Virus record (IMG/VR): IMGVR_UViG_3300025011_000016
Strand: one strand, 5' to 3'
From: a virus
Taxonomy: Duplodnaviria > Caudoviricetes
DNA length: 64,000 nt
The notes under the pieces: generated by a model
Seen by the model: the letters and a program-made list of their open reading frames with translations, nothing else
What the model was told of the DNA's origin: nothing
The model's database searches: none
Made by a program: the position numbers and the translations under genes
Shown: positions 1,630 through 64,000 of the stretch, one piece after another
How the letters are laid out: each line of letters begins with the position of its first letter
Numbering within the stretch: position 1 is the stretch's first letter

Positions 1630-4600
1630 TTGGTTAATAAGAAATTTAAACTATCTATAAATGAGCAACCAAAAAAAATTGCCATCAAATTTGACATTTC
1701 GATTTTGAATTCTATGATCGGGTTTTTATTTAAACAATCAGTGCAAATTAATAGGAAAGCTCTTAATAATATGAAAAAATTATTTGATATTATTGATACA
1801 ACGATATATGAAGGTAATGATAAACTTGAAGCACGACTTAATTTTATAAAAACAGCTTTGGACGCTCGCATAACTAAACAATTCGAAAATGAAAGTATGA
1901 TTATAAATTTCTGTCGCGGTGATACTTATAATAAAGATACTGAAGAAATTATATCAGCAATCGGGGCCTATCGCAGAATAAACTACGAGGAGATAAAATT
2001 TATAAACAAAGCAATCCAAGATAGATTGAAATACTCTTATCTATTAGATATTAAAGATAGAATGTATAATGTTGTAGAGAAAATAGATTCTGGGGATTTT
2101 GAAAGCTTTCAGGATGTTAATGATGAATTAGTTGGACTATGTTCTCACCTATTGAATAAAACCAGAAAAACAAGTGTTCTTGATGATGTGACAACTTTTA
2201 GTTTAGATTCAGAATCATTTGAAACATCGATTACAGATATAGTCAATGCTCTCAGAGATCCATCAAAAAAATATAGGTGGCATTGTAGAGTAATTTACAA
2301 TGATAAACTTCTTTAATTGCGGGAAATCTCTTAGAGCTTCTTAATTGAAGATTGAGTAATCTGCATCCAATATTGTTAATACAACAATAAGGTTCAACGA
2401 CTAGAGTGTAAACTCGTAGATATATGAAATATATCGAAATGGGAAGCATCCTTGATGAAAAAGGTTGATGATATAGTCTTGTATCTTAATGTAAATTAAG
2501 GAAGTTCATAAGAGAACTGTATAGGAGTACATACCTATATGAAAAAACGCACGTATTTTGAAAACAGGCTTGAAAATGCTGAACCAGATACTGGCCCCTG
2601 GCTTTATATCTAAACGATTGTATATGTTTTTAGGCTTACCAGCTTATAAATAAGGTTGGCTCATTGGTAACAATGTGATATAAACTTCTTTAATTGCGGG
2701 GAACTTCTCATAGCTTTATACTAATAAAGATTGGACAATCCGCATCCAATATTCTTATAATAAGAATAAGGTTCAACGACTAGAGTGTAAACTCGTAGAT
2801 ATCGATAATATTGAAATGGGAAGCTCTCTTATTATATAAGAGATGAAGAGATAGTCTGGTATCCTATATTAATATAGGGAAGTTCATTTGAGAACTGTAT
2901 AGATTAATTATCTATATGAACATATCGGGTTTTAAATCAGGTATATTATTGAAAACTGCTAGAGATATAAAAAAGTATAATAAAGGAATTAAACCTAAAA
3001 AAGCAGGTAAAAAACCATGTGTATTATTACTAACACTTGAAAACTCAATTAGTGAATCCGTAGAGAGATTATTTAACATGGTTAGTACTTCTGAGGATAT
3101 TAGGAATTTTACTCCTAAGCAAGTTATTAAGAAATTAAAAGAAGATGGTGAATTAGTATTAACTGATGATGACGATATTGATATTATTATTAAATATTAT
3201 CCAAATAGAAGTATTGATACCTCTGATATATATACTATAGTTGAAGAATTAGCTGATGATGACAAAGAGGTAATAGCTTTAATTTTAGACTATATTAAAA
3301 GAATACGACCTGCTGAAAAAGCTAGTGACGAAAAAGAAGAATTAAAGAATATTACCAATGAATTGAAGAATCTAGCTACAGAATTAGATATACCAGTTAT
3401 TTCAGCCCATCAATATAGGGTGGCTTTATAGAGTGATTTATAAAGAGAACTTTTTTAATTGCAGGAAACTCCTTAGGACTTTATATAATAAAGATTGGAC
3501 AATCTGCATCCAATATTGTTAATACGACAATAAGGTTCAACGACTAGAGTGTGAACTCGTAGATATATAAGTTAATGATATATCGAAATTGAAAGCATCT
3601 AATAAGATGGTGATATAGTCTTGTATCCTATAGAAATATAGGGAAGTTCTTAAGAACTGCATTATATTACGAATAATGTGAAAATCGCAAATGAATAGAG
3701 CTGGAGCAAGTTCAGTTGATGCCGCATTACAAGCTAATAAAGAAGACTTGGCTAAATTTGTAGGTAGAGCCAATGTTGGAAGTGCCTATATTTCATGGGC
3801 CGCATGATGGTAATGTCATGTTGATACTTTTTTAATTGCAGGAAACTCCTTAGGACTTTATATAATAAAGATTGGACAATCTGCATCCAAGATTCTTACA
3901 TAAGAATAAGGTTCAACGACTAGAGTGTGAACTCGTAGATACTTTATGTATCGAAATGGAAAGCAACCTAATTTATAGGTTGAAGAGATAGTCTGGAATC
4001 CTAATGAGAATTAGGGATGTTTGAATAGAACTGGATTATATTACAAGTAATCTGAACATTACGGGGAAGTTTGTATAGAAGCTTCAACATACAGTAATGT
4101 ATGTTTTAAATTTTCTTTAATTGTCGGGGATCTCCTTATAGCTTAAACTACTTTCAATATAGTAATAATGTTTAAGATTGGACAATCCGCATCCAAGTCT
4201 CCCAAAAGAGAAAGGTTCAACGACTAGAGTGTAAACTCGTAGATACATTACGTATCGAAATAAGAAACCCCTTTATATAAAAAATATAGAGGGTGAAGAT
4301 ATAGTCTTGTATCCTAATTAATAATAGGGAAGTTCATAAGAGAACTGTATAAGTTTATGACTTATATGAAAATAACGACTTGAAAACTCAGATTGGGTAT
4401 GTATCATAAACGTCGAGCGTAAGAAAGGAACCGATCAATATTACTTAACCTTTAAAAGAGTTAAGATTCGTTATAGAGATCCAAATGATTTAGGTTATTT
4501 CAATCATCCATTTGATATTCAAAATAGAATGAAGCTTATTGACGACATATATTTAGAAAAATCATTATCTGAAGAAAGTCTAATGAGTGATTTTGAAGGT

Positions 4601-4717
4601 ATTGACGAGAATGTAAATAAAAAAGGTAAACGTAATGCTGTTGAAAGAGACGTTATTGATGATGATGATAAAAATGATTTATTTGACTTCACTAGAGCTA
4701 TTAATAAAACTGCATAA
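1630..4717 (+). CDS. dnaB: DnaB-like replicative helicase, 6 exons / 5 group I introns (~552 aa spliced)
   Basis: Exons 1630-2263, 2550-2644, 2928-3410, 3688-3787, 4064-4070 and 4378-4717 join in frame (1659 nt). Splicing restores RDPS|RILKTG, Walker A GLPA|GFKS, ILDY, SAH|QMNR and GSA|WE|VLENSD. Confidence 0.9.
2264..2549 (+). ncRNA. Group I intron dnaB-I1 (ORF-less)
   Basis: P1 CCAT/GTGG with U-G pair. Core AATTGCGGGAAA, AATCTGCATCC, GTTCAACGACTA, GATATAGTC. Ends in G. Confidence 0.88.
2645..2927 (+). ncRNA. Group I intron dnaB-I2 (in Walker A)
   Basis: P1 CCAGCT/GGTTGG, full core motifs, terminal G before GGT TTT AAA TCA. Confidence 0.9.
3411..3687 (+). ncRNA. Group I intron dnaB-I3
   Basis: Core motifs present and bulged P1. 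Removal gives SAH|QMNR. Confidence 0.88.
3788..4063 (+). ncRNA. Group I intron dnaB-I4
   Basis: P1 GCCT/GGGC and core motifs. Followed by a 7-nt exon. Confidence 0.85.
4071..4377 (+). ncRNA. Group I intron dnaB-I5
   Basis: P1 GAAGT/GCTTC and core motifs. Frame is restored into the 4529..4717 ORF. Confidence 0.85.
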
Positions 4718-4758
4718 AAAAATAAAGAATACACTTAAATGTGTATTCTTTATTTTTT
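4714..4758. terminator. Palindromic bidirectional terminator between convergent genes
   Basis: AAAAAAATAAAGAATACAC-ttaaat-GTGTATTCTTTATTTTTT. Confidence 0.7.
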
Positions 4759-4767
4759 AAGGTTTTA

Positions 4768-5103
4768 TTATAAGTTCATATCAATCCGCTTGAAATTTAA
4801 TGTTAATCTATAACCTTCATTATAATGATCATCTGATTGTTCCAATATACCTAAAGTGACTAAATGTCTAATACCTCTTGAAACAGCGGATTTATGTATA
4901 TTGAGCAATCGACTTATTTTCACTTGGGTTATCTGTTTAAATTTTTTATCGTCTAAAGCAACTATTAGATAAATTAGTATTCGATACTCCGCTTTCGTTA
5001 AATCAACTTCCCCTTCAATAATAGTTTTACAAAAATTAATAATAAAATCATACCCATTATCACATTCCATCATAATAATAACCTCCGTTATTTTATACTG
5101 CAC
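4768..5103 (-). CDS. Winged-helix HTH DNA-binding protein (MarR/RepL-like)
   Basis: LTKAEYRILIYL..ITQVKISRLLNIHKSAVSRGIRHLVTLGIL has an HTH pattern. Confidence 0.7.
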   Translation of the reverse strand: MQYKITEVIIMMECDNGYDFIINFCKTIIEGEVDLTKAEYRILIYLIVALDDKKFKQITQVKISRLLNIHKSAVSRGIRHLVTLGILEQSDDHYNEGYRLTLNFKRIDMNL

Positions 5104-5155
5104 TAATGAGATTGGATAACTGGTAATATAATATTACCAGTTATCCAATATTTAA

Positions 5156-5548
5156 TTAGTCGTCTTCTCTTGGTGGATGTTTAATTTTAGATTTGGAACG
5201 ATCTTCTCTTGGGAATTTTAGACTTAGGCGAAACGTCCCTTTGTCCTCATCAATCAATCCACATACCCTTAACTTCTTTAGATTACGTAAGAAGGTTTTC
5301 TCTCTAATACCTAGCTCACGCATCATGGATGGTGGATGGATTACTCTGAAGGTTTGATGTGATAAGGTACGTAGAAAATAGATTAACATTCGATACTCAT
5401 TACGCCCCAGTGTTTCACCATCAACGATCATTTTAGAAAATGCTGTAAGATACTCCTCTCTTGTAAGTGATTTGGTGGCATCTGAATTGTCTGATAATTG
5501 TCTCAAAATCTCTTTTCTTCTTGCTGATTCAACTTGTCTTTGTGACAT
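5156..5548 (-). CDS. Winged-helix HTH protein, paralog of the adjacent gene
   Basis: LGRNEYRMLIYFL..SMMRELGIREKTFLRNLKKLRVCGLI. Has an RBS (GGAGGA) and an upstream TATATATTAT motif. Confidence 0.6.
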   Translation of the reverse strand: MSQRQVESARRKEILRQLSDNSDATKSLTREEYLTAFSKMIVDGETLGRNEYRMLIYFLRTLSHQTFRVIHPPSMMRELGIREKTFLRNLKKLRVCGLIDEDKGTFRLSLKFPREDRSKSKIKHPPREDD

Positions 5549-5680
5549 ATAAAATCATCCTCCCTTTAATATTATGTAGTATTCTTAGTAATAATATATA
5601 TTTATATATAGTAATAAATATTTTTCGTATTAACGTATTTAAACATAATGGTAAAGATATTATATAAGGAGGTTATTGAT

Positions 5681-7351: not shown

Positions 7352-7449
7352 GTCGTATTTGACGCATTATACGACATAAAAACGTATATTTAAATAATAT
7401 AATTAGAGATTTAAAATCTCTAATTATATTATTTTTTTTCAAAATTATA

Positions 7450-7896: not shown

Positions 7897-7908
7897 TTAT
7901 AATATTAA

Positions 7909-8499: not shown

Positions 8500-8584
8500 A
8501 AATTCACCTCATTTGTATCTTATATTAATATAATGTAGTTTAAAATAAAAAAATAAGTGATTGCTCACTTATTTCTTAAATGAA

Positions 8585-9460: not shown

Positions 9461-9498
9461 TTCTCTTTAACCTCTTTCTCTCTTTTAATTTATATGTT

Positions 9499-9792: not shown

Positions 9793-12615
9793 ATGAAAAT
9801 TGTACCTAATAAACAACAAAAGAAAGCTGTTATTGAATCAGTGAAATGGTTAAAGAGTGGTTATAAACAAGTCTTTGAAATATCAGGTCCTCCAGGATCA
9901 GGTAAAACCTTTATAGTTTATTTAATACGAAAGGCAATGAAGCTAAATCCCTTGGATGTTCTATTTATGGCATATGTAGGAAAAGCTACAATGGCTTTGA
10001 CATTACAAGGTAATAATGCAAAGACAATGCATAGTTCTATTTATGATAGGGTTGATTTACCTAAGATGGATGAGAATGGTAAGTTTATTTTAAAAAATGG
10101 TAGAATACTTACAACTCCTGGTTTTGTTAAGAAAAAATCTTTACCTGATAATATAAAACTTATAGTGGTGGACGAAGGTTCTATGATTAATGAAAAATAC
10201 GCTTTAGATATTTTAAGCTTCAAGTTACCAGTTTTAGTGCTCGGGGACTTAAATCAGCTTTTTCCTATCTTTGGGAAACCTTATTTCTTAAGACAACCTG
10301 ATATTATATTAACAGAAATTATGAGACAGGCTAAAGATGATCCTATTATTCATTTAAGTCAAAAGGCAATTAATGGTGAAATTATTGAGATAGGAAAATA
10401 TGGTGATAGATGTTTTGTTATTAATAAAGAAGATATCACAGACAATATGCTTACAAAAACAGATATCGTTATTTGTGGTAAAAATAAGACACGGGATCAT
10501 ATAAATAAATATGTTAGAGAAGAAATATATAAAATAGACAAGCCTTATCCAGTAAAAGGTGAGAAATTAATATGTAGACAAAATAATTGGGATATGTCTG
10601 TCGATGAAGGTAAAATATTCTTAGTTAATGGTCTTGTAGGTTACGTTGAAGAAACACATTTAGACACTTATAATAAAAGATCTTTATGTATTGATTTTAG
10701 GCCTGAGTTTTTAAAAGAAACTTGTTTTGAAAGAGTAGCAATTGATTCTTTTATGAGTCACGTTGCATAGTAATATGCAATTGCAACTACTTTAATTGCG
10801 GGAAACTCCTTAGAACTTTATCTACTAATGTAACATGATAAAGATTGGACAATCTGCAGCCAATGATCTATTCATAATAGATTTAGGTCCAACGACTAGA
10901 ATGGGAAAGTTCGTAGGGCTCAAGTGAGTGGGTGAGACTCCCTTAAATCGAAATGGGTGGCCCCATTATAATAATTAGTATAATGGGTGAAGATATAGTC
11001 TGTGCTTTAAGGAAACTTAGAGAATAACTAACCGTAAGTCTTAATAACTATTCTGTATATAATTATATTATACAGTTAACAAATAATATAAGAACGGGGG
11101 TGATATAAAATGATTAAGACTTTTAAAACAAGAATACGACCGAATAAAGAACAAGAGGTATATTTAAATAAGTGCTTTGGGTATAGAAGGTTTATATATA
11201 ATAATGCGTTAGAATACTTTAATACTCTTTTAAAATATAATAATAATGTTATTGATAAGGATTTAAAGAAGTTCTTTGATAAATTTGATTATATTACTCA
11301 TATATATTCTAAGAAAGAAAAGGGACCGGGATTTGAATGGACTAAAGAATATAATAAGTCCATAAAGAATGAAGTGGCTAGTGATGTTAACTTAGCTGTT
11401 AATAGATTTTTTAAAGATATTAAAAATAAGAAGCGTTGTAAACTGCATTTTAAAAGAAAGGTTCATGGAAATGGATCGTTTAGAATATATAGTAAGCATA
11501 AAACTAATGTTATGATTCTTGATATGAAATTATTCTCTTTTATTATTAATAGAGAATTTGGTCATATGTCATTAAAAACATATGAGGACATAAGTTTCTT
11601 ATATCATCATGATATAAAAACAATGACTATTAGTATGAAGAATTTTAAATATTATGTCTCATTTACTTATGAAATAGATGTTCCAAAGCATAAGCATGAG
11701 AAAGATACCATAGGTATAGATTTAGGGATACATAATCCGGTAGTTTGTTTTGATGGAAAAGATATCATAAATCCTAAATTTCCGAAAGGAATTATTAAGA
11801 AACTAGAGAAGAGAGCCGATAAATTTTCAACGATAGTTTCTAAGAAGAAATATGATAAATGTAATCCATCAAAGAACTATATAAAAGCGAGAACCAAGCT
11901 TAATTATATTCATGGTAAGATAGTGAATATTAGAATGGATTATATTCAGAAGGTTTCAACCTTCTTAACTAAGACTTATAGAAATATCGTAGTTGATGAA
12001 TTTAGTTTTAAAGAATTACTAACAGAGTCTGATGGTATTAAACGTATTAATAGAGGTATACATAGAGTAGGTGCCTTTACGTTTATGCAAGTGTTAAAAT
12101 ATAAATGTCACTTTTACGGCAGTGAATATATTTTAGCCGAACCTAATAGTACCATTACATGCTCTGAATGTAATCATAAACTTAAAACTAAGTTGAAGTT
12201 ATCCCAAAGAGTCTTTAATTGTCCTGATTGTGGATATATAGATGATAGGGATAATAATGCGGCTATTAATATTTATAAGTCATATAAGAATCTTTATTAA
12301 CTAACGTAAATAGAGATTTCGCCGTTGGTCGGACGGTTTAAAGAACCTTGACGGTTAAGTTATTGTGGTATCTAACGAATACTACTAACACGACAGTATA
12401 AGCATTTATTTACACCATATGAACAGAGAGATAATAAACGTAGCTATTATAATAAATTTGAATTTGCCAACGCAATAAGCGTTCATTTATCACAAGGATC
12501 ACAATATAATACAGTTTTAATATATAATGAAAGAATGGGAGATAAAGAGTATTATAAGAAATGGTTATATACAGCAATATCGAGAGCGGTATCCGGATTA
12601 GTATTGGCCGTTTAA
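9793..12615 (+). CDS. RecD/Dda-like SF1 helicase, 2 exons (~390 aa spliced)
   Basis: Exon 1 9793-10746 has GPPGSGKT and VDEGSM. Exon 2 12397-12615 has SVHLSQGSQY and LYTAISRA. Junction reads VAID|YKHLF. Confidence 0.88.
10747..12396 (+). mobile_element. IStron-like element 1: group I intron + tnpB + omegaRNA-like right end
   Basis: Inserted after TTGAT. P1 TGAT/GTCA, ribozyme core 10790-11000, tnpB downstream of the S element, conserved right end ...CTAACACGACAG. Confidence 0.88.
11110..12300 (+). CDS. tnpB: TnpB (IS200/IS605-family RNA-guided nuclease)
   Basis: N-terminal KTRIRP..EQ..L..CFG..RFIYN, RuvC-I GIDLG, zinc finger CSEC..CPDC, RuvC-III DRDNNAAINI. Confidence 0.92.
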   Translation: MIKTFKTRIRPNKEQEVYLNKCFGYRRFIYNNALEYFNTLLKYNNNVIDKDLKKFFDKFDYITHIYSKKEKGPGFEWTKEYNKSIKNEVASDVNLAVNRFFKDIKNKKRCKLHFKRKVHGNGSFRIYSKHKTNVMILDMKLFSFIINREFGHMSLKTYEDISFLYHHDIKTMTISMKNFKYYVSFTYEIDVPKHKHEKDTIGIDLGIHNPVVCFDGKDIINPKFPKGIIKKLEKRADKFSTIVSKKKYDKCNPSKNYIKARTKLNYIHGKIVNIRMDYIQKVSTFLTKTYRNIVVDEFSFKELLTESDGIKRINRGIHRVGAFTFMQVLKYKCHFYGSEYILAEPNSTITCSECNHKLKTKLKLSQRVFNCPDCGYIDDRDNNAAINIYKSYKNLY

Positions 12616-13898: not shown

Positions 13899-16800
13899 AT
13901 GGCTAAATTTACAGATGATCAAATAGAACACATAGAAAGTGACATAGAGAAGATTCAGACTAAGCCTAAATATAATTGGGCTATTATATAGTGATATATA
14001 ATATAAACTTTTTTAATTGACGGAAACTTCCTTAGAGTCTAAACTACTAAATTGATATTTTAGTATATTGATGGCTGAGTGTAATTAACTCAGGTATAGT
14101 AATAATGTTTAGGATTGGATAATCCGCATCCAAGTCTCTTATAATAAGAGAAAGGTTCAACGACTAAATGTAGAGCTCAAGTGAGTGGGTGGAAATCCCT
14201 TAAATCGAAATGGAAAGCATCTTTAATAAAAGATGATGATATAGTCTTATATCCTAATGAAAATTAGGGAAGTTCATAATAGAACTGCACAGCTCAGCAA
14301 ACTGTGTGAAATAATGAATATGTACGTCAGCTATTTAGCACACCTAGGCGCATTACATTTATCTAAAGAGGTAATAAATAATTCTATAGATGAATGTATT
14401 AATCAAAATTCACCAGCTAACGAAATTAATATATATTTAGATGAAGGTGAGAATACTTTACTAGTTGCTGATAATGGTAGAGGAATAGCTTTCGATAAAA
14501 TGGAAATTGTGTGCACTAAATTACAAGCAGGTAGTAAGTTTACCAGAGAGGGTAGTGGTGGAGCTTCTGCTGGAGAAAACGGGTGTGGCATTACGGCCGT
14601 GAATTCGCTGTCGGAACACTTTGAGATAATCTCAACTCGTTATGGTGAAAGGGCTATAATTGAATTTGAATCTGGTAAGTTGGTCAGGTCACCAGTAATT
14701 AAAAAAATCGGTGATAAAACTAAACACGGTACTACAGTAAAATTTAAACCCAATCCATTTTACATGGGTGACGATTGTGATATCCCAACAGATTTATTGA
14801 TTGAATGGATTGAAAAAATAGTTTATTTAATGCCATCAAATATAGAAATATCACTAAGTGTCTCCAGAAAAGGTAAAGAATCTGCAATAAATAAAAAGTA
14901 TCGTAATAAAAATGGTTTAAAGGACTATATTTTGAAATTGTGTAAAAAGCCTATTTTAGATCCAATTCATTTTATGAAATCTTTAAAAATTAAAGAATTT
15001 GATAAAGGTAGAGAGATCGAAAGATTCATTGGATTAGAAACAGCTTTTACTTACAATTCAAATAGTATGGAACCTATTATTGAATCATTTTGTAATTTTG
15101 TGGTCACTGTTGAAGGGGGTATTCACAACGATGCTGTTAAACAAGGTGTTGTCCAATTCTTAGTTAGGAAAACTAAGGAGGGTTTATCTGATAAAGAATC
15201 GAAAAATATTGATATACTACCTATAGACGCTACTCAAGGATTAGTGTTGACATTATACTTAAGTACCGATATGAATATGATGTTTGCATCACAAACGAAA
15301 GAAAAACTTTCTAATAATGCTTTCTTCAAACCACTCAGAAACATGACATTTAATTCATTGGATGAATACTTTAAAAAAGAAGTTAATGATTTAAAGAAGA
15401 TAACAAGTTTTATTAAGACTAATGCTAAAGCAAGAATTGAATCAAACAAAGCTAGAAATGCTGTTATTAAAGGTGAAACTACTTCATTCGAAGAACACAA
15501 AATGAAGAATTTCTCTCCTGCAAATAATTTAGGGAATGATTACAGAGAGTTATTTGTTATAGAAGGTAAATTAGATTGCCTTATTTTCTTTAATTGACGG
15601 GAAACTCCTTAGAACTTCTTAATTGAAGATTGGACAATCCGCAGCCAAGTCTCTTTATATAAGAGAAAGGTTCAACGACTAGAGTATGTAAGCTCGTAGG
15701 TTTATTTATAATCCGAAATGGGAAAACAATAGATTTATTCTATTGAAGAGATAGTCTAATATCCTAATTAACATTAGGGAAGTTCATAAGAGAACTGTAT
15801 AGAGTTATAATCTATATGAATGATTGGATTCAGCAAAGGGTAGTGCAAGGTTAGGTAGGGATACGGATACTCAGGCATTATTTGCAATGCGAGGAGTTCC
15901 ACTTAATAGTTTTAATCTAAAGTTAGATAAAGTTTTATTGAATGATGAATTTAGGGATTTAACTAAAGTATTAAAATGTAATATCGGTGAACGATTTGAT
16001 ATTACAAAACTAAATTATAAAAAAATAATCATACTTACGGATGCGGATTAATTCATAGTCCCATTATGTAGTGATATATAATGTAAACTTCTTTAATTGA
16101 CGGGAAACTCCTTAGAACTTCTTAATTGAAGATTGGACAATCCGCAGCCAAGTCTCTTTATATAAGAGAAAGGTCCAACGACTAATAGTAGGGCTCAAGT
16201 GAGTGGGGTAATAACACCCTTTAAATCGAAAATAGAGGCATCTTTTATAAGATGATGATATAGTCTACACTTTATTGAAAGATAAAGAAAGATAGCATCT
16301 TTACATTATCTAACGAATAATGTTAATATGAATGGATTGATGGTTTGAGAATAGCCTCACTAATTTGTGTATTCTTCTTATGTCATATGCCAGAGATAAT
16401 TAAGCAAGGATATTTATATAAATCAGTATCACCACTATATTTATTAAATGATACTAAGGGTCATTTTATTATTGATAAAAAAGAGTATGTATCAGTTTTT
16501 GAAAAAGCTGTTAGAAATAACATTAAAGTTATTGATCCAGAAACTAATATTGTTTATACTAATAATGAGATGAAAGAGTTACTATTAAAGAATAGGGGAT
16601 ATTTAGAGGAGTTATACCGAGTTAGTAATCATTTTGCAGTTAATCCTTTTATCATTGAATACATCACCATATATGGGGATCAATCAAATTTCATAAATAA
16701 AATGAAAAAGAAATTCCCTGAGTTAACACTTGATGAAGAAAATGTTTTATCTGGTATATATGAAGGAAAATATCAGATTATTATATTGGATAAAATATTC

Positions 16801-17887: not shown

Positions 17888-17888
17888 T

Positions 17889-23790: not shown

Positions 23791-24381
23791 TCATATTGAG
23801 TCTCGTTGCATAGTAATATGTAATTGTAACTACTTTAATTGCGGGAAACTCCTTAGTGCTTAAAACACTTTTAAAGTAACAAAGTTTAAGATTGGACAAT
23901 CCGCAGCCAAAGTTATTATTTAATAACGAGGCTCAACGACTATCCCAATGGTACTAAAATGTACATTAGGAGTAGGGCTCAAGTGAGTGGGTGAGATTCC
24001 CTTAAATCGAAAAGGGTAGCCCCATTATTATAATGGGTGAAGATATAGTCTGTGCTTTAAGGAGACTTAGAGATATAACTTAACCGTAAGTAAGTCTTAA
24101 TAATTCATTCTTAATAAGATATTATTATAGTTATAACAAATAATATAAGAAGGGGGTGACGATAAATGTTTAAAACTTTTAAATACATCTGACTAAAAAA
24201 GCTATGTATTGACACGAAACTTATAAATAATGGCGATAACCAAGCCTATTAATAATATTTATAAGTTGTAAAAATCTTTATTAACTAGCGTAAATAGAGA
24301 TTTCGCCGTTGGTCGGACGGTTTAAAGAACCTTGACGGTTAAGTTATAAGTGGTATCTAACTAATACTACTAACACGACAG
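23791..24381 (+). mobile_element. Mini IStron-like element 2 (tnpB internally deleted) in the SD-AUG spacer
   Basis: Inserted after GGAT. P1 GGAT/GTCT, intact ribozyme core, tnpB remnant and same right end ...CTAACACGACAG. Confidence 0.88.
24166..24290 (+). pseudogene. tnpB: tnpB remnant (start MFKTFK and last codons only)
   Basis: Same RBS/leader as the full copies, then a stop after 8 codons. The 3' part aligns with ...ATTAATATTTATAAGT..AATCTTTATTAA of element 1. Confidence 0.75.
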
Positions 24382-24385
24382 GAAT

Positions 24386-42100: not shown

Positions 42101-42952
42101 TTAAAATAACAAATATCAGAATGGATTATATCCAGAAGGTATCTACATTTTTAGCTAAAACTTATAAAAACGTTATAGTTGATGAATTTAGTTTTAAGGA
42201 TGTATTAACAGAGTCTGATGGTATTGAGCGTATAAATAGAGGTATACACAGAGTTGGTGCCTTTACATTTACCACAGTGTTAAAATATAAATGCCACTTT
42301 TATGGTAGTGAATATATTTTAGCATTACCTAACAGTACGAACACATGCTCTGTTTGTAATCATAAAGTTAAAACTAAAATGAAGTTATCTCAAAGAGTCT
42401 TTAATTGCCCACAATGTGGACATATAGATGATAGAGATAACAATGCGGCTATTAATATCTATAATACATTTAAACGATCTTTATTAACTAACGTAAATAA
42501 AGATTTCGCCGTTGGTCGGACGGTTCAAAGAACCTAAACGGTTAAGTTATTATGGTATCTAACGAATACCATTAACACGACAGTTATGCCTAAAGAATAA
42601 GATGGGAGGGCTGTTATTAATCCGTGGGATTAAAGAAATAACAGCCGTTAAAATTATTGAGGGCATAAAGTCGAATAAAAAACTTATTGATTTATTACGA
42701 TCCGAGATTAATTTAAGGAGGGATGTAAGACGATATACAATTAAAGTATGTTTTACTAAAGTTAGAGATAAAGATTTTGAGAAATTTCTTGAAAGTAAGA
42801 ATGTATTGGTTCTTGAAAAATATAATAAGGAGGTTGATGTGTTAATCATACCTTATAAAGATATTGATTCAGTCAAAGTTACTACTGCGAAGAAAGATGG
42901 TAAGGATATCGTAACCATCGATGAAGCTTATAAGATGTTTGGTTATAAGTAG
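39187..42952 (+). CDS. ligA: NAD-dependent DNA ligase, 2 exons (~698 aa)
   Basis: Exon 1 39187-40914 has PKWDG, DGVV, AYKF and a C4 zinc finger. Exon 2 42584-42952 has HhH and BRCT-like tail. Junction LID|LCLK is in frame. Confidence 0.9.
40915..42583 (+). mobile_element. IStron-like element 3: group I intron + tnpB
   Basis: Inserted after TAGAT. P1 AGAT/GTCT, core motifs and right end ...TTAACACGACAG. Confidence 0.88.
41296..42537 (+). CDS. tnpB: TnpB, close paralog of 11110..12300
   Basis: Same motifs (GIDLG, CSVC..CPQC, DRDNNAAINI). TTG start after AAGGAGG. The ORF reads into the right-end RNA. Confidence 0.92.
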   Translation: MIKTFKTRIRPTKEQEVYLNKCFGYRRFIYNNALEYFNTILEFNGNNLDKTLKKFFNKFDYITNIYSKKEKEPELEWTREYNKNIKDQVSSDFNIAVNRFFNDIKNKKRCKLHFKRKIHGNGSFRIYNKNKGNVKILDKNIFSFIINREYGHMSLKTYEDISFLYHHDIKTMSIRMKNFKYYVSFTYELDIPKHDHEKDIIGIDLGIHNPVVCFDGKDVIAPKFPKGIIKRLEKKVDKFSTIVSKKKYDKRNPSKNYIKARTKLNDIYIKITNIRMDYIQKVSTFLAKTYKNVIVDEFSFKDVLTESDGIERINRGIHRVGAFTFTTVLKYKCHFYGSEYILALPNSTNTCSVCNHKVKTKMKLSQRVFNCPQCGHIDDRDNNAAINIYNTFKRSLLTNVNKDFAVGRTVQRT

Positions 42953-43525: not shown

Positions 43526-46500
43526 TTGAAGGACTTCATAAAGGATTATAACAACACCAATGAAGAAAATATCAATTTTGATCTAATGACACGATCACAT
43601 GATGCTGATTTAACAGAGTATGTTGTTAATACCTGTAAATCATTAGAAGTTCTTAAATATATTAAATTCATTGGTTATGAATATATAACTGATGAAACGA
43701 AAATAGATATTAATTACTATATGAGTACGAGGAAGAAAAGTAAGAAGAAAAATGAAACAAAGTATATGTACCTGCAAGATAGTCGATATGGTGAAATGCA
43801 TTTAAAGTTTCATTTAAAATGTAAAGATCGATCATTAACTTTTATCAAGAAGATATTATTACCAGTGGCTGATGATAATGATTATTATTTAGTTAAAGGT
43901 AAAAGACATTCATTATTATATCAACTAGTTGATAGTTCAACTTATACAACTAGACAGAATTTAACATTAAAATCATTAAGACCTATTACGATGAAACGAA
44001 CTGAAAGAATATATTCAGATACAGATGGTACTAAACATTCAGCTCCTTCATATGCAATTTATATCTTCAAGAAAGAAGTAGATATATTATTATTCTATTT
44101 TGCAAAGATAGGTGTGTCAAGAACTTTAGAATATTTTTCAGTAAATCATATAATGAAGTTTAAATCAGAAATTGAAGATACTATCAATAATATATATTTC
44201 TCAATTAATAGTAAATTACATGTAGAGATCAATAGACATTTCTTTGATAAATATCCATATGTTAAGAGTATAGTATTTATGATATTGAATATTTGCACTA
44301 ATAGATTAACTGTTGAAGATCTAGAAAATAAATCTTTCTGGATTGAAAAGATAGGCTCTATGAATGCGACTAATGCATATAACTATCTAGAAAAAGGTAC
44401 TAATACTTTAGTATTCTTTGATAGGTTATTAGATGAAACAACTAAGAATATTTTAAAAATTCATGATGAGAATAATAAAAATATATACTCTGTAATTCGT
44501 TGGATTAAATTATAGTCCCATTATAGAGTGATCTATATTGAAAACTTCTTTAATTGTCGGGAAACTCCTTAGTGCTTTATAAAGATAAAGATTGGACAAT
44601 CCGCAGCCAAGATTCTTATAATAGGAATAAGGTTCAACGACTAATTTAGAGCTCAAGTGAGTGAGTTTAATATAACTCTTAAATCGAAATAAGAAGCATC
44701 TTATATAAGATGATGATATAGTCTGTGCTTTATTGAAAGATAAAGAAAGATAACATCTTTACATTATCTAACGAATAATGTTAACACTCAGGTTTCAAAA
44801 CTTTAATGAATTACGTAAGAAAGATAATCTTGATCTTGCCAATAAACGTTTACGATGTAATGAACTCATCGCATCATTATTAACTAAAGCTTTTAGTACT
44901 AGAGTTGATAGAATTATTGGTTTTGGTAATAAAGTTACGTTAGATAACATTAAGGAAATATTCAAATTTCCAGGTGATGTAATAATGCAGCAATTGCATA
45001 AGTCAGGATTATTTAGATATGATATTTTATTGTCCATTATAGTAGTGATATTATAATGAATTTTCTTTAATTGGCGGGGACATTCTTAGGGCTTAAACTA
45101 CTAAAATATATCAGTGATGATATACTAACTAAGAGTAACTAACTTAGTATGAGTAATAATGTTTAAGATTGGACAATCCGCAGCTAAGCATCTTTATATA
45201 AACCCCCATAATTATTAATACGTTATACAATATAAAGGAGAGGTGTGACTGTAATGAAAGGACGATTGGGTGAAAATAAATGTCCCTCTTGTTACGAATA
45301 ATTATTCAATTAATTCTGAGGGATTTATTAGGAATGATAAATTCAATAGAATTTTGACCCGATGGAAAAATAATAGAGGTTATGAAGCTGTGCAATTATC
45401 ATGTATTGATGGTATAACAAGAAGTTTTACAATTCATAGATTGATGGCTCATCATTTTATACCAGGGTTCGACATTTCAGATAGATCCATTGTTGTTCAT
45501 CATAAGGACAGTGTAAATAAAACTAACTCATTAGATCTTCTAACCGTTTGTACTCAAAAAGAAAATATTAAGTATTCTATCGAAGAAGGTAATAAACCAA
45601 ATGGTGAAAAACATCCGATGGGTAAATTTCCAGATGAGCTGGCTAATAAAATAGTTGCCTTATTACAAAAAGAAAAAAGTACCGATGAAATATTTAATAT
45701 ATTAGATTTAGAAGTTAAGAAGAATATGCGTATATTTATAAATGATCTTAGAGCTAAACGAACCCGATTGTATTTAACTGAAGGTTTGGATTTAAAGAAG
45801 CATGTGCAGGAAAAACATGATATAAACTTGGTGAAGAGGGTGATTCGTTATATGAAGATAGGTATGACGGTAGATAATATAATCAATATGATTGGAAAAG
45901 GAAATGCTGGTAGGCATGAAAGGGAGAGATACTCCTCGTTAATACAAAGGATACATGACGGGAAAGCGTGGGGAAGATTATATAAAGATGATAGTTCAAC
46001 GACTAATGATGACTACATGGTTATTAAAATTAAAATGTAGTTATAGATTTACAAGCTAATGGTAAATCGAAATGGGGAACACCTCATATTAAGTTGATAT
46101 GAGATGAAGATATAGTCTGGTATCCTAATATTAAATTAGGGAAGTTCATAAGAGAACTGGGTTTCGTTGCGGAAAACCTGAACCTGGGGATAAAATTAAC
46201 GATCTCGACTTCTTTAGTAAGTTCAAATATACCCTAAATTTTGGGGCGTTATAGAGTGATCTATATAGATAAAATTCTTTAATTGTCGGGGAACTCCTTA
46301 GAACTTCTTAATTGAAGATTGGACAATCCGCAGCCAAGATTGTTGATAAACAATAAGGTTCAACGACTAGAGTATAACTCGTAGATATATAAGTTAATGA
46401 TATATCGAAATAAGTTTAATCTTCTTATAGAAGATTGTGATATAGTCTTGTATCCTATATAACATTAGGGAAGTTCATTTGAGAACTGTATAGAGTTACG

Positions 46501-47746
46501 ATCTATATGAAAGTATACGTAAAGGACCAAATTCCTTGGGTTTTAATAAATAGGCCCATGATCTTTTAATTGCGGGAAACTCCTTAGTACTTCTATATGA
46601 AGATTGGACAATCCGCAGCCAAAATTGTTGATAAACAATAAGGTTCAACGACTAGAGTATAACTCGTAGATATATAAGTTAATGATATATCGAAATATAG
46701 AACTATCGAAAGATAAAGAGATAGTCTGGTATCCTAATTAACATTAGGGAAGTTCACAGGAGAACTGCATTATTTTACGAATAATGTGAACTCATCGAAT
46801 AAAAATGATAATAATATCTCAGTTAAATATCGCGGCATACACCCGAGTTATCTGGCCCGCGTAGATATTAACGTTTGCGGTGAACGTAGAAATATAATTG
46901 CCGCCTTTTCTTTAATTGACGGGAACTCCCTTATAGCTTAAACTACTAATAGTAACAAGTTTAAGATTGGACAATCCGCAGCCAAGATTGTTATAAAACA
47001 ATAAGGTTCAACGACTAGAGTGATAACTCGTAGATTCGAAAGAATTGAAATGGGAAAACGATAGAGTTATTCTATTGAAGATATAGTCTAATATCCTAAT
47101 ATAAGTTAGGGAAGTTCATAAGAGAACTGCATAGATTGATAAACTGTGTGAATAAATGAATTCAGACCCTAGAAATAAATTTGGGGCAATATCGAGTGAT
47201 CGTTATTGTTAAACTACCTTGACTGCGGGAAACTTCTTAGAGCTTTAAATTGATAAAGATTGAACAATCCGCACCCGATATTCTATATAATAGAATAAAG
47301 TTCAACGACTAGAGCATATTTGCTCGTAGATATAAAGTTATATCGAAATTAGTAGAATCTCTTAGGAGATTATGAGATAGTCTGGTATCCTATATAACTA
47401 TAGGGAAGTTCATAAGAGAACTGTACTATTTAACGAATAGTATGAACACACGGGAACTAGTGGTATTATAACACCATTCTGTAAAACTAGTGGATTATTC
47501 TTCGATGGTGCATTTGAACCAGAAAGTTTTAAATATGATTTTGATAAGGAGATAACTGACTTTAGAAAATCAACTAGTAATAACATAATTGTTGATACTC
47601 ACTATGATAATATATCTGAGTATTTTGAAGGTAGAGAACGATTTAAAGAAATGAATAGTCGAATCAAAATATCAGAGATTGAACGAACTGATAATAGTAA
47701 GTATTATATTAAAATTAAGCTTGCTAGTAATACTGATGATATATAA
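43526..47746 (+). CDS. RNA polymerase beta-subunit N-terminal half (probably non-virion RNAP), 7 exons / 6 introns (~556 aa)
   Basis: Exons 43526-44505, 44792-45023, 46189-46235, 46520-46541, 46798-46881, 47159-47170 and 47453-47746 (1671 nt). Restores KFKYT|LKGPNSLG|NKN..RGIHPSYLARVDINVCG|NSDP|GTSG, matching the RpoB fork-loop region. Confidence 0.85.
44506..44791 (+). ncRNA. Group I intron betaN-I1
   Basis: P1 GGAT/GTCC and core motifs. Confidence 0.87.
45024..46188 (+). mobile_element. Group I intron betaN-I2 with HNH ORF
   Basis: P1 GAT/GTC. Q precedes the ORF, R lies inside the ORF 3' end, and S is at 46107. Confidence 0.85.
45270..46040 (+). CDS. Intron-encoded HNH homing endonuclease
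   Basis: IHRLMAHHF..VHHKDSVNKTN..TQKEN. GTG start. Confidence 0.8.
   Translation: MKINVPLVTNNYSINSEGFIRNDKFNRILTRWKNNRGYEAVQLSCIDGITRSFTIHRLMAHHFIPGFDISDRSIVVHHKDSVNKTNSLDLLTVCTQKENIKYSIEEGNKPNGEKHPMGKFPDELANKIVALLQKEKSTDEIFNILDLEVKKNMRIFINDLRAKRTRLYLTEGLDLKKHVQEKHDINLVKRVIRYMKIGMTVDNIINMIGKGNAGRHERERYSSLIQRIHDGKAWGRLYKDDSSTTNDDYMVIKIKM
46236..46519 (+). ncRNA. Group I intron betaN-I3
   Basis: P1 CCCT/GGGG and core motifs. Confidence 0.87.
46542..46797 (+). ncRNA. Group I intron betaN-I4
   Basis: P1 TGGGT/GCCCA and core motifs. Confidence 0.87.
46882..47158 (+). ncRNA. Group I intron betaN-I5
   Basis: P1 GCGGT/GCCGC and core motifs. Confidence 0.87.
47171..47452 (+). ncRNA. Group I intron betaN-I6
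   Basis: P1 CCCT/GGGG and slightly divergent core (GACTGCGGGAAA, AATCCGCACC). Confidence 0.85.
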
Positions 47747-56850: not shown

Positions 56851-56989
56851 CCTTCCTTAGTAATATGTATTAATTATTATAATGAATGACATTGATCATG
56901 ATAAATGTTTATATATTATAATAAGGTACAGTTTGAATTATTATTTTCGTTTTAACAATTGTATAATAGAAAGGTGTTGATTTATATTT

Positions 56990-59900
56990 ATGGATTTCAT
57001 GAAAGGTATTAATAAAGAGAATGTCATGTTAATTAATATAATATATCATAATAAGAGAAAAGAGAATAATTATAATGATTACTTAGATATTATCACTAAA
57101 GATTTAACCACAGGTGAAAAAATACTTACAACTATCGAGAATCCTGAAATGGATATATATTTTACAAAAGAGGAGCATAGAAATTATGACTATAATAAGA
57201 ACTTTATGGAAATTGATAAGACTGATAGACATAGATTTAAATATAAAGATCTAACTAGATCCATAGCTAAAATGGCTGGGCCTAGTTATGAGAACTTCAT
57301 TAAACAATCTATAGAAACACAAAATTATGCTAGAATAAATAATATCCATAAATATAAATATGTATTTGGATCTGATGTTGATATTGAAAATTGGTATAGA
57401 ATTCAATGGTTATTAAATTATGATAATAATAAACCTAAATCCGTAACTAAGCTATTTCTCGACATAGAAGTCGACGGTCGGGATGTACCTGGATTCCCCA
57501 GAGATGGTGAAGTGCCAATTAATGCTGTAACGATAGTAGATGAATTTAGTAATCAATCATTTACATTCTTATTGGATAATCCATTAAACCCTCAAATAGA
57601 AGATTTTAAAAATGATGTGGAATCTTTTGTTGAAGAACTACATAATGATTTTGATGAATCATATGGGGAATTAAAATATAACTTATTTATTTATGATGAT
57701 GAAGTTCAAATGTTAATAGATGTATTTAAATTGATTAACACTCTGAACCGAGATTTCCTATTAGTGTGGAATATGAGTAAAATGATGCTCCTTATAAAGG
57801 CGACTTTATAAGAAAATTTCTTTAACTGCTGGAAACTCCTTAGAGCCTTTATTATCAGAGTATAATAATATAAAGGATTGGGCAATCAGCAATCAAGTTC
57901 AATAACAAACTAAGTTTTATTACATTTATTAGAGGAGGGTAAAACATGTATATAGTAATACGCAAAGATAAAGAAGTATTTAAATTATCAACTTATCCTG
58001 GGATTAAAAAAGATATGTATTCTATTAGTAACTACGGGTCTATACGTAATAATGTGACAAACGAGATATTTTTTCCAACATCGAGAAACTCAGCAGGTTA
58101 TGTACACACTTCTTTATGTACAGAATCATTTAAAGTTTACACTAGTGTTTTGGTATCACGTTTAGTTGCTTGGGAATTTTGTGATGGTTATGATAAGGAA
58201 CTAAATAGGGTGGAAGTCAATCATAAAGATATCAACAGGGCTAATAATTATTATGAGAATTTAGAATGGGTGACTCGGGGAGAAAATACTAAATTTGCCT
58301 ACGTGCATGGCAATCGTAAGGTGATAGTGCCAGATTCTAGGGGACCAAGAGCAAAGATACGCGGATCATTAAATCCCAAGAATGTTTTCAGTGAAGAGTT
58401 TGTACATGAACTCTGTCAGTTATTCACGGACGGTAAGAGCACTAAAGAGATATTAAAAATATTCAATACGAGTAAAAAATTAAATACACAACTCTATTCA
58501 TTACTCATGACTTTGAAACATAGAAAAGGATGGGGACATATTACGGAAAAATATGTATATTGATATTTGTTATTGAAAAGATTCAACGACTAGAGTGAGA
58601 ACTCGTAGACCCTTTTCATGGGGTGGACATAATAAGTCCTTCGCGAAATGGGAAACATCTCCGATGTGGAGATGAAGATATAGTCTGATATCTTAGGGAA
58701 ATCCTAAGGAAGTTCATAAGAGAACTGCGTAGTATAAAAAACTATGTGAACTGTTTGTTCGATGTGCCGTACATGATCGCACGTATGTTAGAATTAGGAA
58801 TGAATCCTGTTGAAGTGATGTGTCATAAAGATTTTAAAATACAAGAAGCTTTTTTCAAAAAAGATCTTCGAAATTTTATGATAGCTAATAAAGGAGATTA
58901 TTTTAAGATATCATCTTATACTGTATATTTAGACCAAATGATAGTATATGCCAGTTTAAGAAAAGGAGGTAGTCAGTTACGATCAAATGCTCTTAGCTAC
59001 ATTGCTCAAGTTGAAATTGGTGATGAAAAATTAGACTATTCTGAAGATGCTAATATCAAAACTTTACCATATGTTAATTACAAGAAATTCGTTAAATACA
59101 ATATCAAAGACGTTTTACTACAACTTGGAATTGAGAGAAAAACTCATGATATTGATAATGTTTATTTAAGATCGTATACAAATGTAACAGCTTATTCAAA
59201 AGTATTTAGACAAACGGTATTTTATAGTGCCGGTGATTCTTTAATTGACGGGAAACTCCTTATAGCTTCTTAATGAAGATTGGACAATCCGCAGCCAAGA
59301 TTCTTATAATAAGAATAAGGTTCAACGACTAGAGTATAACTCGTAGGTTTAATAACTGAAATGGGAAACCGATAGAATTTATTCTATTGAAGATATAGTC
59401 TATTATCCTAAAGTAATTTAGGGAAGTTCATAAGAGAACTACATTATCTTACAAATAATGTGAATTATAGGTTCTTAAAAAACAGAGCATTTTTAGAGTT
59501 TTATAAACAAGGTTTGATTATTGGTAATAATACCAATATTGATTATGGATTACCTCCTCAGATAGCTAAAGAAAAAGATGAGGATGATGAGAAATTTGCA
59601 GGTGCATTAGTTGGTGATCCTGAATTGAATAGTAAGACTGGTATAATGATGTTAGGAACTCCAAGTAAATACATCTATGATAACGTTGTAGATATGGATA
59701 GCTTTGTCCCATTATGTAGTAATATGTAATGAAAACTTCTTTAATTGACGGGGAACTCCTTAGAACTTCTTAATCGAAGATTGGACAATCCGCAGCCAAG
59801 ATTCTTATTATATAGAATAAGGCTCAACGACTATCCCATTGGTATTGAAATATACAACAGGAGTAGGGCTCAAATGAGTGGGTGAAATTCCCTTAAATCG

Positions 59901-60600: not shown

Positions 60601-60601
60601 A

Positions 60602-61258: not shown

Positions 61259-61373
61259 TATAAAATAATGGTATGAATTTAATTCATACCATTATTTTTT
61301 TTGCTAAATTTCACTAATTAAATTATTCAGGAACAGAACTATAATATATCATACATGAAAGGGAAGGTGTATA

Positions 61374-63166: not shown

Positions 63167-64000
63167 AAAATAATATATAGCCGATGATAAACTTCTTTAA
63201 TTGACGGGAATATCCTCAGAGCTTTAAACTACTAAACTAGTATAGTGATATGCTAAGTGGCTAGGAGTAATTAACCTAGGTATAGTAATAATGTTTAAGA
63301 TTGGATAATCCGCAACCAAGATTCTAATGTTATTAAATATTATTTCTTATATTCATCATAACAGAGCTATAAATATAATTATATGAAAGGATTGTGAGTA
63401 ATGCGAAATATAGTTGAAATATTTAAACCGATTTATATTTATGGTGAACGCACTAATTATTTAGTTAGTGATTGGGGGACTGTAATGAATGGGACTACCA
63501 AGAAGGAGTTAAAACAACGTCTTAATGCTGATAACTATTATGAAGTTACATTATGGGTAAATAATAAAGCCGTTAATCGAAGGATACATAGATTGGTGGC
63601 CGAAACCTTTCTTGAGAATCCAAATAATTATCCTGTAGTAAATCATAAAAAAGGTGGATTAACAGAGGATGGGCAATGGAATAATTGTGTTTTAAACTTA
63701 GAACATACAACTATTTCATATAATACAAAACATGCATATGATACGGGTTTAAAGAACCCTTTAGTTGGAGAGGAATGTGGGTTTAATATATATCCGGAAC
63801 CATTAATAGATAAAATTATCAATAAACTATTAATGGCTATACCACCGGACATTATAGCCGATGAACTTGGGGTAAAAGTATCATTAGTTACAAGTGTGCG
63901 TGATGGATATTCATGGAAACATAAAATTAAAGGTCTTGTTTTTCCTAAACCTGCTTTTGCCCACACTAATGAATATACATATGAATTAAAATTTAAAATT
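63167..64000 (+). mobile_element. Group I intron (3' end outside window) with HNH ORF
   Basis: P1 TCGGT/GCCGA, AATTGACGGGAA and AATCCGCAACC, followed by an ORF. Confidence 0.82.
63401..64000 (+). CDS. Intron-encoded NUMOD4/HNH endonuclease, 3'-truncated by window
   Basis: Read manually: MRNIVEIFKP..IHRLVAETFLENPNNYPVVNHKKG..NNCVLNLE. Open to the end of the window. Confidence 0.8.
   Translation, partial: MRNIVEIFKPIYIYGERTNYLVSDWGTVMNGTTKKELKQRLNADNYYEVTLWVNNKAVNRRIHRLVAETFLENPNNYPVVNHKKGGLTEDGQWNNCVLNLEHTTISYNTKHAYDTGLKNPLVGEECGFNIYPEPLIDKIINKLLMAIPPDIIADELGVKVSLVTSVRDGYSWKHKIKGLVFPKPAFAHTNEYTYELKFKI

Follow-up and report, generated by a model that had tools for sequence, protein, structure and literature searches.

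A 64,000-nucleotide (nt) stretch of viral DNA from IMG/VR record IMGVR_UViG_3300025011_000016, here called the window, contains 29 group I introns, of which 28 are complete and one is truncated by the window end. On balance, most of these introns appear to have arisen by copying within the lineage of the phage, with resident introns reaching new sites matched by their guide sequence and being retained thereafter in motifs of essential genes. An earlier reading made from the letters alone (the sequence-only reading) had proposed that a minimal ribozyme proliferated into new sites of the genome, and this proposal is supported, for the genome or its lineage: related introns form clades that are restricted to the window and extend across genes, and about 22 of the occupied sites are empty in G001, a 250-kb IMG/VR contig from a related phage. 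The same reading had argued that site-specific homing cannot account for this spread of paralogues, which agrees with the finding that relatedness among the introns tracks only the last 3-6 nt of the 5' exon.

All 29 introns are on the + strand and run in the sense direction of transcribed genes; one of these introns occupies a 5' untranslated region (UTR). They are hosted by nine genes, all essential, namely dnaB (five introns), a RecD/PIF1-like helicase gene (one), gyrB (three), a virion RNA polymerase (RNAP) gene similar to AR9 gp077 (two), RNAP beta-C (six), the NAD-dependent ligase gene for LigA (one), RNAP beta-N (six), DNA polymerase (four) and portal (one). DnaB, the PIF1/AAA_30 helicase, GyrB and LigA were identified via Pfam, and beta-C, beta-N, the DNA polymerase and the portal by tblastn to AR9/PBS1. 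What the sequence-only reading had called a small beta gene is the homologue of AR9 gp077, a virion RNAP subunit which is itself intron-split. With regard to the introns, the Rfam model RF00028 gave 22 matches at or above its gathering cut-off of 50 bits (56.6-95.4 bits, E 1e-11 to 2.5e-23) and two more below it (43.1 and 26.1 bits). Five introns outside these lists, being IStron-type, split by an open reading frame (ORF) or cut by the window end, were recovered by a family profile hidden Markov model (HMM) trained on the 22 ORF-less copies. Its total for the window is exactly 29, including four elements interrupted by an ORF and one truncated at the window end. By the conserved 3' strand of P7, 28 cores are recognised, and the three sequence blocks that the sequence-only reading had singled out occur 24, 18 and 17 times with up to three mismatches, against 0 expected by chance. 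RF00028, the family HMM and the Pfam and tblastn assignments thus agree with the number of introns, the genes and the counts per gene that had been stated, and the 22 ORF-less copies, put at 250-360 nt, measure 252-357 nt.

Of the remaining introns, four carry ORFs of the HNH/NUMOD4 type (11, 20, 25 and 29), two are full IStrons with tnpB (6 and 18) and intron 10 is an IStron minus tnpB. The summed intron length is 14,183 nt, or 22% of the window, and the exons between introns can be as short as 6, 7, 12, 15, 18 and 22 nt. The insertion sites fall in catalytic or otherwise conserved motifs of the host genes; the motif names used here (the Toprim EG/DS and the DAD/IDG of GyrB, GRYG/NKG of beta) were assigned by reading the sequences, and in the same way the site of intron 25, NMS/FDVPY, is taken to be Exo II of the polymerase and introns 27 and 28 are taken to lie in motif A. 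The introns and their ORFs are listed below; the word given is the end of the 5' exon, and a slash marks the insertion point in a motif.

2264-2549, +, intron 1, dnaB: ORF-less, CCAT; RF00028 65.6 bits; gap-free alignment to the uninterrupted G001 DnaB
2645-2927, +, intron 2, dnaB: ORF-less, AGCT; RF00028 and G001 DnaB alignment
3411-3687, +, intron 3, dnaB: ORF-less, CCAT; RF00028 and G001 DnaB alignment
3788-4063, +, intron 4, dnaB: ORF-less, GCCT; followed by a 7-nt micro-exon (4064-4070); RF00028 and DnaB alignment
4071-4377, +, intron 5, dnaB: ORF-less, AAGT; RF00028 and G001 DnaB alignment
10747-12396, +, intron 6, RecD/PIF1-like helicase: IStron with core, tnpB and a right end in AACACGACAG; TTGAT; family HMM
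11110-12300, +, tnpB in intron 6 (396 aa): PF12323, PF01385 and PF07282
13968-14316, +, intron 7, gyrB: ORF-less, GCCT; RF00028 and relatives' GyrB
15568-15826, +, intron 8, gyrB, Toprim motif EG/DS: ORF-less, no P2, AGGT; RF00028
16049-16335, +, intron 9, gyrB, DAD/IDG: ORF-less, GGAT; RF00028
23791-24381, +, intron 10, 5' UTR of the AR9-gp077-like gene: tnpB-deleted IStron; RF00028
24908-25865, +, intron 11, gp077-like gene: HNH ORF, GGGT; same site filled in G001 and G004
25080-25508, +, HNH/NUMOD4 endonuclease ORF in intron 11: PF13392, PF07463
34701-34965, +, intron 12, RNAP beta-C, GRYG/NKG: ORF-less, no P2, CGGT; RF00028
35055-35328, +, intron 13, beta-C: ORF-less, CCCT; followed by an 18-nt micro-exon; RF00028
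35347-35658, +, intron 14, beta-C: divergent; orthologue of the same-site G001 intron, tree support 100/99
36068-36368, +, intron 15, beta-C: ORF-less, TCCT; RF00028 and orthologue alignment
36420-36776, +, intron 16, beta-C: ORF-less, GCCT; followed by a 15-nt micro-exon; RF00028
36792-37087, +, intron 17, beta-C: ORF-less, AGAT; RF00028 and orthologue alignment
40915-42583, +, intron 18, NAD-dependent DNA ligase: IStron with tnpB, AGAT, ending in AACACGACAG; family HMM
41296-42537, +, tnpB in intron 18 (413 aa): Pfam domains
44506-44791, +, intron 19, RNAP beta-N: ORF-less, GGAT; RF00028
45010-46186, +, intron 20, beta-N: carries the ORF at 45270-46040, GGAT; family HMM
45270-46040, +, ORF in intron 20 (256 aa): no Pfam match
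46236-46519, +, intron 21, beta-N: ORF-less, CCCT; followed by a 22-nt micro-exon; RF00028
46542-46797, +, intron 22, beta-N: ORF-less, GGGT; RF00028
46882-47158, +, intron 23, beta-N: ORF-less, no P2, CGGT; followed by a 12-nt micro-exon; RF00028
47171-47452, +, intron 24, beta-N: ORF-less, CCCT; RF00028 sub-threshold; same site filled in G001
57779-58757, +, intron 25, DNA polymerase, NMS/FDVPY: HNH ORF, GAGT; RF00028 sub-threshold
57946-58563, +, HNH endonuclease ORF in intron 25: PF13392
59219-59470, +, intron 26, DNA polymerase: ORF-less, no P2, CGGT; RF00028
59700-60002, +, intron 27, DNA polymerase: ORF-less, GGAT; followed by a 6-nt micro-exon; RF00028
60009-60264, +, intron 28, DNA polymerase: ORF-less, GGGT; RF00028
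63167-64000, +, intron 29, portal: cut by the window end, CGGT, NUMOD4 ORF from 63401; family HMM

Endonuclease features were recognised in introns 11 and 25 (HNH_3) and 29 (NUMOD4), and the 22 ORF-less copies are devoid of them. The ORF of intron 20 is 25-58% identical to ORFs of G001 and G004, with 58% for an ORF at the extreme end of the related contig G004 and about 30% for G001 ORFs that also match the HNH ORFs of the window; by these similarities it is probably a divergent homing nuclease.

The intron boundaries were set by P1 pairing, by the reading frame and, most decisively, by alignment of the spliced product to uninterrupted orthologues in related contigs. Spliced DnaB aligns without gaps over about 550-571 aa, the query coordinates of spliced GyrB are exactly contiguous, and beta-C exons 4-7 and the DNA polymerase are likewise gap-free once the introns are removed; the beta-N junctions were also placed by orthologue alignment, and the helicase ORFs of relatives read uninterrupted through the site of intron 6. 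These alignments contradicted the rule that the 3' end of the intron is always CG, which was dropped. A U precedes the 5' splice site in 29/29 introns, and a terminal G (omega G) is found in all 28 complete ones. Furthermore, each of the 29 introns forms a P1 helix with its own exon, consisting of the U.G pair and 3-6 further exon pairs, whereas only 22% of mismatched intron/exon combinations reach three or more further pairs, which bears out the statement that every copy has an internal guide sequence matched to its own exon. When the 22 ORF-less copies are folded to a consensus, two-sided changes preserve the pairing at 22 of the 39 pairs, and the covarying elements include P8, P9 and the terminal hairpin. 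A comparison of the last four intron nucleotides with the four preceding the terminal hairpin, which should covary if they acted as an IS200/IS605 right-end guide, was uninformative on covariation, since the upstream word is constant (ACTG). Compensatory pairs, pairing of P1 with the own exon and the exactly restored frames of essential host genes constitute strong, if indirect, evidence that the introns are functional ribozymes under structural selection.

Two of these introns presented additional features. Intron 10 lies between a Shine-Dalgarno sequence (AGGAGGAT, directly before the splice site) and the ATG of the gp077-like gene (23791-24386), and a normally spaced ribosome-binding site arises only after splicing; since the proper spacing exists only in the spliced RNA, translation of the gp077-like gene could be coupled to the splicing of intron 10. 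With regard to the divergent intron 14 (region 35329-35700), spliced beta-C is about 20 aa shorter after GVINRF than AR9 gp088 and is missing the segment NRLNPSQLIEQ, and G001 looks alike. A hairpin near the 3' end of intron 14 (ATCGCA...TGCGAT) resembles its P1 (ATCGCT...GGGCGAT), and the sequence may conceal a micro-exon inside this intron.

The nearest cultured relatives are AR9/PBS1-like jumbo phages, with which beta-C shares 42% aa identity, and beta-C is followed by LigA in both AR9 and the window phage. A megablast search of the window against cultured phages returned no useful match, and the TnpB of the window was matched on a 248.6-kb groundwater-metagenome contig. To judge from these sequence matches, the source phage is a distant AR9/PBS1-like jumbo phage, uncultured and from groundwater. 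A search for related loci with a single protein gave no relative; related contigs were obtained by scanning IMG/VR for the family-specific P9-P9.1 motif, and the nearest are G001, G002, G003 and G004, whose exons are 71-80% identical in nucleotide sequence. Ten related contigs, eight of them rated complete (187-292 kb) and two being fragments, have 16, 8, 8, 4, 2, 8, 8, 2, 4 and 1 RF00028 matches.

In the syntenic ~68 kb of G001 there are nine introns, compared with 29 in the window. Sites 11, 14, 24 and 26 are common to both at the nucleotide level, and site 21 probably is; at site 26 the G001 intron contains a homing endonuclease gene, and the beta-N intron of G001 that contains such a gene corresponds to site 21 and not to site 20. 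Sites 12 and 29 were considered as shared and rejected, as the G001 introns are found 9 nt upstream and 27 nt downstream, respectively. At about 22 of the window's sites, G001 has continuous orthologous ORFs without an intron, and many of these sites are also empty in G002 and G004; the beta-C gene of AR9 (gp088) is uninterrupted, against six introns in the window. Conversely, G002 has a dnaB intron at about position 3050 which is missing from the window. The pattern of presence and absence, with four or five shared sites and about 22 empty ones, is thus in line with the proposed proliferation. The introns of relatives are located a few codons away in the same motifs, which speaks for repeated independent insertion. 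A further observation in G001 (84998-85711; L178:4998-5711, minus strand) is a pair of tandem introns 14 nt apart in the gene just upstream of beta-C; the matching stretch of the window is without an intron, so that relatives have private sites of their own.

For 21 of the 25 comparable introns the nearest neighbour is found inside the window (77-90% identity), while the best outside match reaches 66-75%. A tree of the intron cores was inferred with IQ-TREE from ~235 columns, with the P1/P2 columns left out. It contains a window-only clade (support 98/95) of introns 6 (helicase), 10 (UTR) and 18 (ligase) together with 9 (gyrB), 19 (beta-N) and 27 (polymerase), and a second one (98/87) of introns 13 (beta-C) and 24 (beta-N). 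Introns 12 (beta-C), 23 (beta-N), 26 (polymerase) and 8 (gyrB) fall in a further clade (91/99), of which L161 and the pair of intron 14 with its G001 counterpart are also members. The label "window" requires seven changes on the tree, compared with 20.5 after shuffling (0/500 shuffles as low). The sequence-only reading had named as its refutation a tree in which each intron is closest to the same-site intron of another phage. This pattern is absent: only intron 14 is sister to a same-site intron (100/99), and the same-site pair formed by intron 24 and G001 is not sister (approximately unbiased test, p=0.038). Copying within the lineage is supported accordingly.

The well-supported groups each hold a target word, namely xGAT, CCCT or (C/A)GGT. 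Across the 25 introns, the more similar two cores are (P1/P2 excluded), the more similar are the final 3-6 nt of their 5' exons (r 0.19-0.24, permutation p 0.0004-0.003); no such correlation exists for the opening 4-6 nt of the 3' exon (p 0.41-0.53) or for exon positions -11 to -6 (p 0.86). In the closest pairs, first among them introns 12 and 23, the guide sequences differ exactly at the positions where the exons differ, and a beta-C intron of G001 has about the same 5' end and the same GGGT target as intron 11 of the window, which is in a different gene. Judged by these exon comparisons, a signal confined to the exon end is the footprint expected of guide-directed insertion and not that of a protein homing nuclease, because such nucleases read long sites spanning both exons.

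These observations bear on classical homing, whereby the introns would have arrived at the same sites from unsampled co-infecting donor phages, and the likeness within the genome would reflect a shared donor pool, gene conversion or both. All sites are located in conserved motifs of essential genes, which is the usual signature of homing; four introns have HNH/NUMOD4-type ORFs and relatives contain many HNH paralogues; sites 11, 14, 24 and 26 are common to G001; and the family-specific tail is found in ~40 IMG/VR contigs. Given that the exons of sampled relatives are only 71-80% identical, closer donors may have escaped sampling. Notwithstanding, we regard homing as an unlikely source of the swarm, as no same-site sister save that of intron 14 was sampled, related introns occupy unrelated genes, and relatedness follows 3-6 nt of the 5' exon where a nuclease would read a long two-exon site. 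Moreover, homing would merely shift the original ectopic events to other genomes.

The copies are considerably diverged. Identity on the HMM match columns is 62-88% in the largest group and 59-77% between groups, and the closest window pairs are 81-91% identical over aligned columns. At least four subfamilies can be distinguished, and the copies are as diverged as same-site orthologues between phages, so the description of the introns as largely one family was overstated. Similarly, the blocks described as near-identical are indeed recurrent, but copies that are 62-90% identical do not amount to near-identity, and the first two blocks belong to the universal group I core (block 1 corresponds to P3'/P8 and block 2 to J8/7-P7). 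Block 1 was discarded as a family marker, as in degenerate form it is found in more than 112 IMG/VR contigs, giant viruses included. Only the P9-P9.1 block is specific to this intron family, with 59 stretches in ~40 IMG/VR contigs, many of 220-290 kb.

With regard to age, same-site orthologues of the window and G001 are 78-81% identical, their exons 71-80% and the paralogues 81-91%. As paralogue identity is close to that of orthologues and exons, the expansion is not a recent burst; these identities place it roughly at the split from the G001 lineage or somewhat later, which fits the empty sites of G001.

An alternative is that the common ancestor already had most of these introns, with relatives losing them precisely by recombination with intron-less alleles and concerted evolution homogenising the copies left in this genome. 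Recombination in phage populations can readily remove an intron precisely, paralogue divergence is about that of orthologues, and the introns of relatives cluster by genome too. This scenario nevertheless appears very unlikely indeed. G001 would have had to lose ~22 introns precisely and independently, and G002, G004 and AR9 about as many; relatives fill sites that are empty here (the dnaB site of G002, and the G001 sites at distances of 9 nt and 27 nt from sites 12 and 29, respectively); and target words specific to subfamilies are not expected from conversion alone.

Introns 6 and 18 combine a group I core with a tnpB gene (HTH, OrfB and TNB domains), and both have the right end AACACGACAG, which is located at the 3' splice site. 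In intron 10 an internal deletion of ~1.1 kb has removed tnpB, and the last 164 nt with the right end are kept. A further IStron copy is present elsewhere in the genome (on L206), and the 5' words are TTGAT (intron 6), AGGAT (10), TAGAT (18) and ATGAT (L206 copy), and all copies end in ACAG. The TnpB paralogues of the phage (11110-12300, 41296-42537 and L206:6001-7239) share 84-85% identity with each other and at most 38% with the next match, forming an isolated clade. Many other ENA contigs of jumbo-phage size (about 230-250 kb) encode TnpBs that are ~29% identical. The GGAT-type introns 9, 19 and 27 are the nearest ORF-less kin of the IStrons, and the IStron terminal hairpin loop with the following TTAA is also found in introns 9 and 19; by sequence kinship, the IStron most likely arose from the GGAT subfamily by gaining a tnpB cassette.

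The presence of IStrons suggests another route, in which the ORF-less introns would be miniature IStrons moved as single-stranded DNA by a Y1 TnpA acting in trans, encoded by the host or elsewhere in the phage, with the guide sequence doubling as the left-end guide that chooses the target in the 5' flank, as in IS200/IS605 transposition. The window holds two full TnpB IStrons and a tnpB-deleted derivative, with at least one more copy elsewhere in the genome; the ends, xxGAT on the left and CAG on the right, resemble the TTGAT/TCAG of group A IStrons, in which the left subterminal palindrome belongs to P1 (PMC4227781). Target specificity resides in the 5' flank only, as in IS200/IS605 elements, and introns 9 and 19 share the hairpin loop and TTAA noted above. 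Despite these parallels, the route seems quite unlikely for the ORF-less copies. Neither a Y1 tnpA (PF01797) nor a reverse transcriptase was found among the window ORFs, and tnpA was not found in the ten related jumbo-phage contigs either. In blastn against IStron 18, the ORF-less copies 9, 12, 13, 19 and 27 align over the ribozyme core only (~10-300), without any remnant of TnpB, omegaRNA or right end, and the reading of the ORF-less introns as deleted IStrons was given up. Intergenic or antisense copies, usual for IS200/IS605 elements and their miniature derivatives, are lacking. TnpB is missing from nine of the ten related contigs despite the same intron family, and the relatives G001, G002 and G004, which lack both TnpA and TnpB, still differ in their intron sites; the sole TnpB-bearing contig has four RF00028 matches, and the idea that TnpB tracks intron load was given up as well. 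The suggestion that the IStron machinery mobilised the 22 ORF-less copies in trans is thus not upheld.

In the copying within the lineage that we favour, a few introns would be old residents common to relatives, and most would be lineage-specific gains in which resident introns were copied into new sites. Each new site would depend on no more than the 4-5 exon bases pairing with the guide sequence of the copy in P1, so that subfamilies hold their target word (xGAT, CCCT, (C/A)GGT) across unrelated genes. For the integration step, we favour reverse splicing into transcripts under RNA guidance, after which the copy would return to DNA; alternatively, illegitimate break repair could insert copies, with only P1-compatible products surviving. 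Persistence would be confined to conserved motifs of essential genes, because copies there can neither be lost imprecisely nor stop splicing. The nuclease-bearing copies (three with HNH/NUMOD4-type ORFs, a fourth with an ORF of the same family, and the TnpB IStrons) would drive horizontal homing, neighbouring ORF-less introns being carried along by co-conversion, and guide sequence and exon would co-adapt afterwards. The chemistry of integration, the hitch-hiking by co-conversion and the direction of change, gain and not loss, are what we infer from these patterns.

Several points weigh against this interpretation. The window ORFs include no reverse transcriptase, and the deep nodes of the intron tree, built on ~235 columns, are poorly resolved. 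Gene conversion among copies could mimic clustering by genome. The nine interrupted genes contain 41% of the usable target 4-mers, yet all 29 introns are found there (P about 8e-12), from which it follows that guide matching alone is insufficient and that either selection or a second layer of targeting has to be invoked. Whatever the mechanism, an insertion without a P1 match would not be viable, so the match does not identify one. The paralogues are old, at 81-91% identity against 78-81% for same-site orthologues and 71-80% for exons, and the timing argument is weak. A more specific proposition, which we regard as doubtful though conceivable, is that the window records a natural and still readable case of ectopic group I intron transposition, directed by the intron's own guide repeatedly into protein-coding genes with no nuclease gene in the moving copy, through reverse splicing or a DNA-level equivalent. 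In that case, the aquifer population would hold intermediates, with polymorphic and newly filled sites.

Other features of the window include a tubulin/FtsZ-like gene (PhuZ-like) and a gene for a ParA/MinD-like ATPase in the replication module (27595-28740 and 37694-38518). Directly downstream of the five-intron dnaB there are two small winged-helix (MarR/ArsR-like) ORFs on the minus strand (4768-5548).

The means by which group I introns come to occupy new sites are an old question, as homing explains spread to the same site only, and evidence for natural site-hopping comes almost entirely from rRNA genes. The present material offers dozens of paralogous ORF-less introns in nine protein genes, relatives that differ site by site and a measurable rule, namely that related introns share only the 4-5 exon bases pairing with the guide sequence, which makes the question testable. 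From a practical standpoint, introns make up 22% of the region and exons can be only 6-7 nt long; in such phages, genes for replication, transcription and packaging will be broken up by standard gene callers.

Among known systems, the cox1 gene of fungal mitochondria can contain up to about 19 group I introns, placed in conserved motifs and separated by very short exons. These are mostly LAGLIDADG- or GIY-YIG-bearing, site-specific homing elements of several subgroups; the local density is comparable, but the window has ORF-less paralogues that share target words. Transposition by reverse splicing is known from the Tetrahymena intron in E. coli rRNA and from the site-hopping of rDNA introns, where 4-6 nt of complementarity to the guide determine the new site, without dependence on the 3' flank. 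The window shows the same pattern, limited to the end of the 5' exon. Reverse splicing also requires a reverse-transcription step, to which no reverse transcriptase among the window ORFs corresponds. To our knowledge, a reverse-splicing swarm in phage protein-coding genes has not been documented, the process being known from experiments and from phylogenetic inference on rRNA genes.

The AR9/PBS1 phages (Takahashivirus) resemble the window phage in having introns in split RNA polymerase genes. In AR9, the virion RNAP subunit gp077 is put together from three pieces, and an HNH gene resides in one of the group I introns concerned; however, beta-C gp088 is uninterrupted and the total is a handful of introns, compared with 29 here. 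The Jug (jumbo gut) phages of Bacteroides/Phocaeicola are a further parallel, in which short, mostly ORF-less group I introns split terL, nrdD and the DNA polymerase gene alongside stand-alone HNH and other homing nucleases, with a mean of 18.5 introns per 360-402-kb genome and metatranscriptomes backing the splicing of about half of the predicted introns (PMC12880540). The likeness lies in a huge phage whose essential genes are split by many short ORF-less introns; nevertheless, the window phage belongs to a different lineage, its 29 introns in 64 kb represent a more than 20-fold higher density, and neither an analysis of paralogy and target words nor TnpB IStrons are reported in PMC12880540.

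The IStrons have their counterpart in the group A elements of C. difficile (CdISt1/CdiIStrons), which insert after TTGAT and end in TCAG (PMC4227781); in strain 630 all eight copies are without a full tnpA, and three free-standing introns are also present (PMC4227781, 10.1101/2023.11.20.567912). Introns 6 and 18 have the same build, likewise lack a full tnpA and resemble these elements in inserting after xxGAT and ending in CAG. They differ in residing in a virulent-type jumbo phage, in a looser word akin to a transposon-adjacent motif (TAM) and in an isolated TnpB clade (at most 38% identity), and the 22 ORF-less introns of the window do not look like IStron derivatives. Taken together, the intron swarm is an extreme variant of a known phenomenon, that of intron-rich huge phages and IStrons, with an unusually clean new-site signal.

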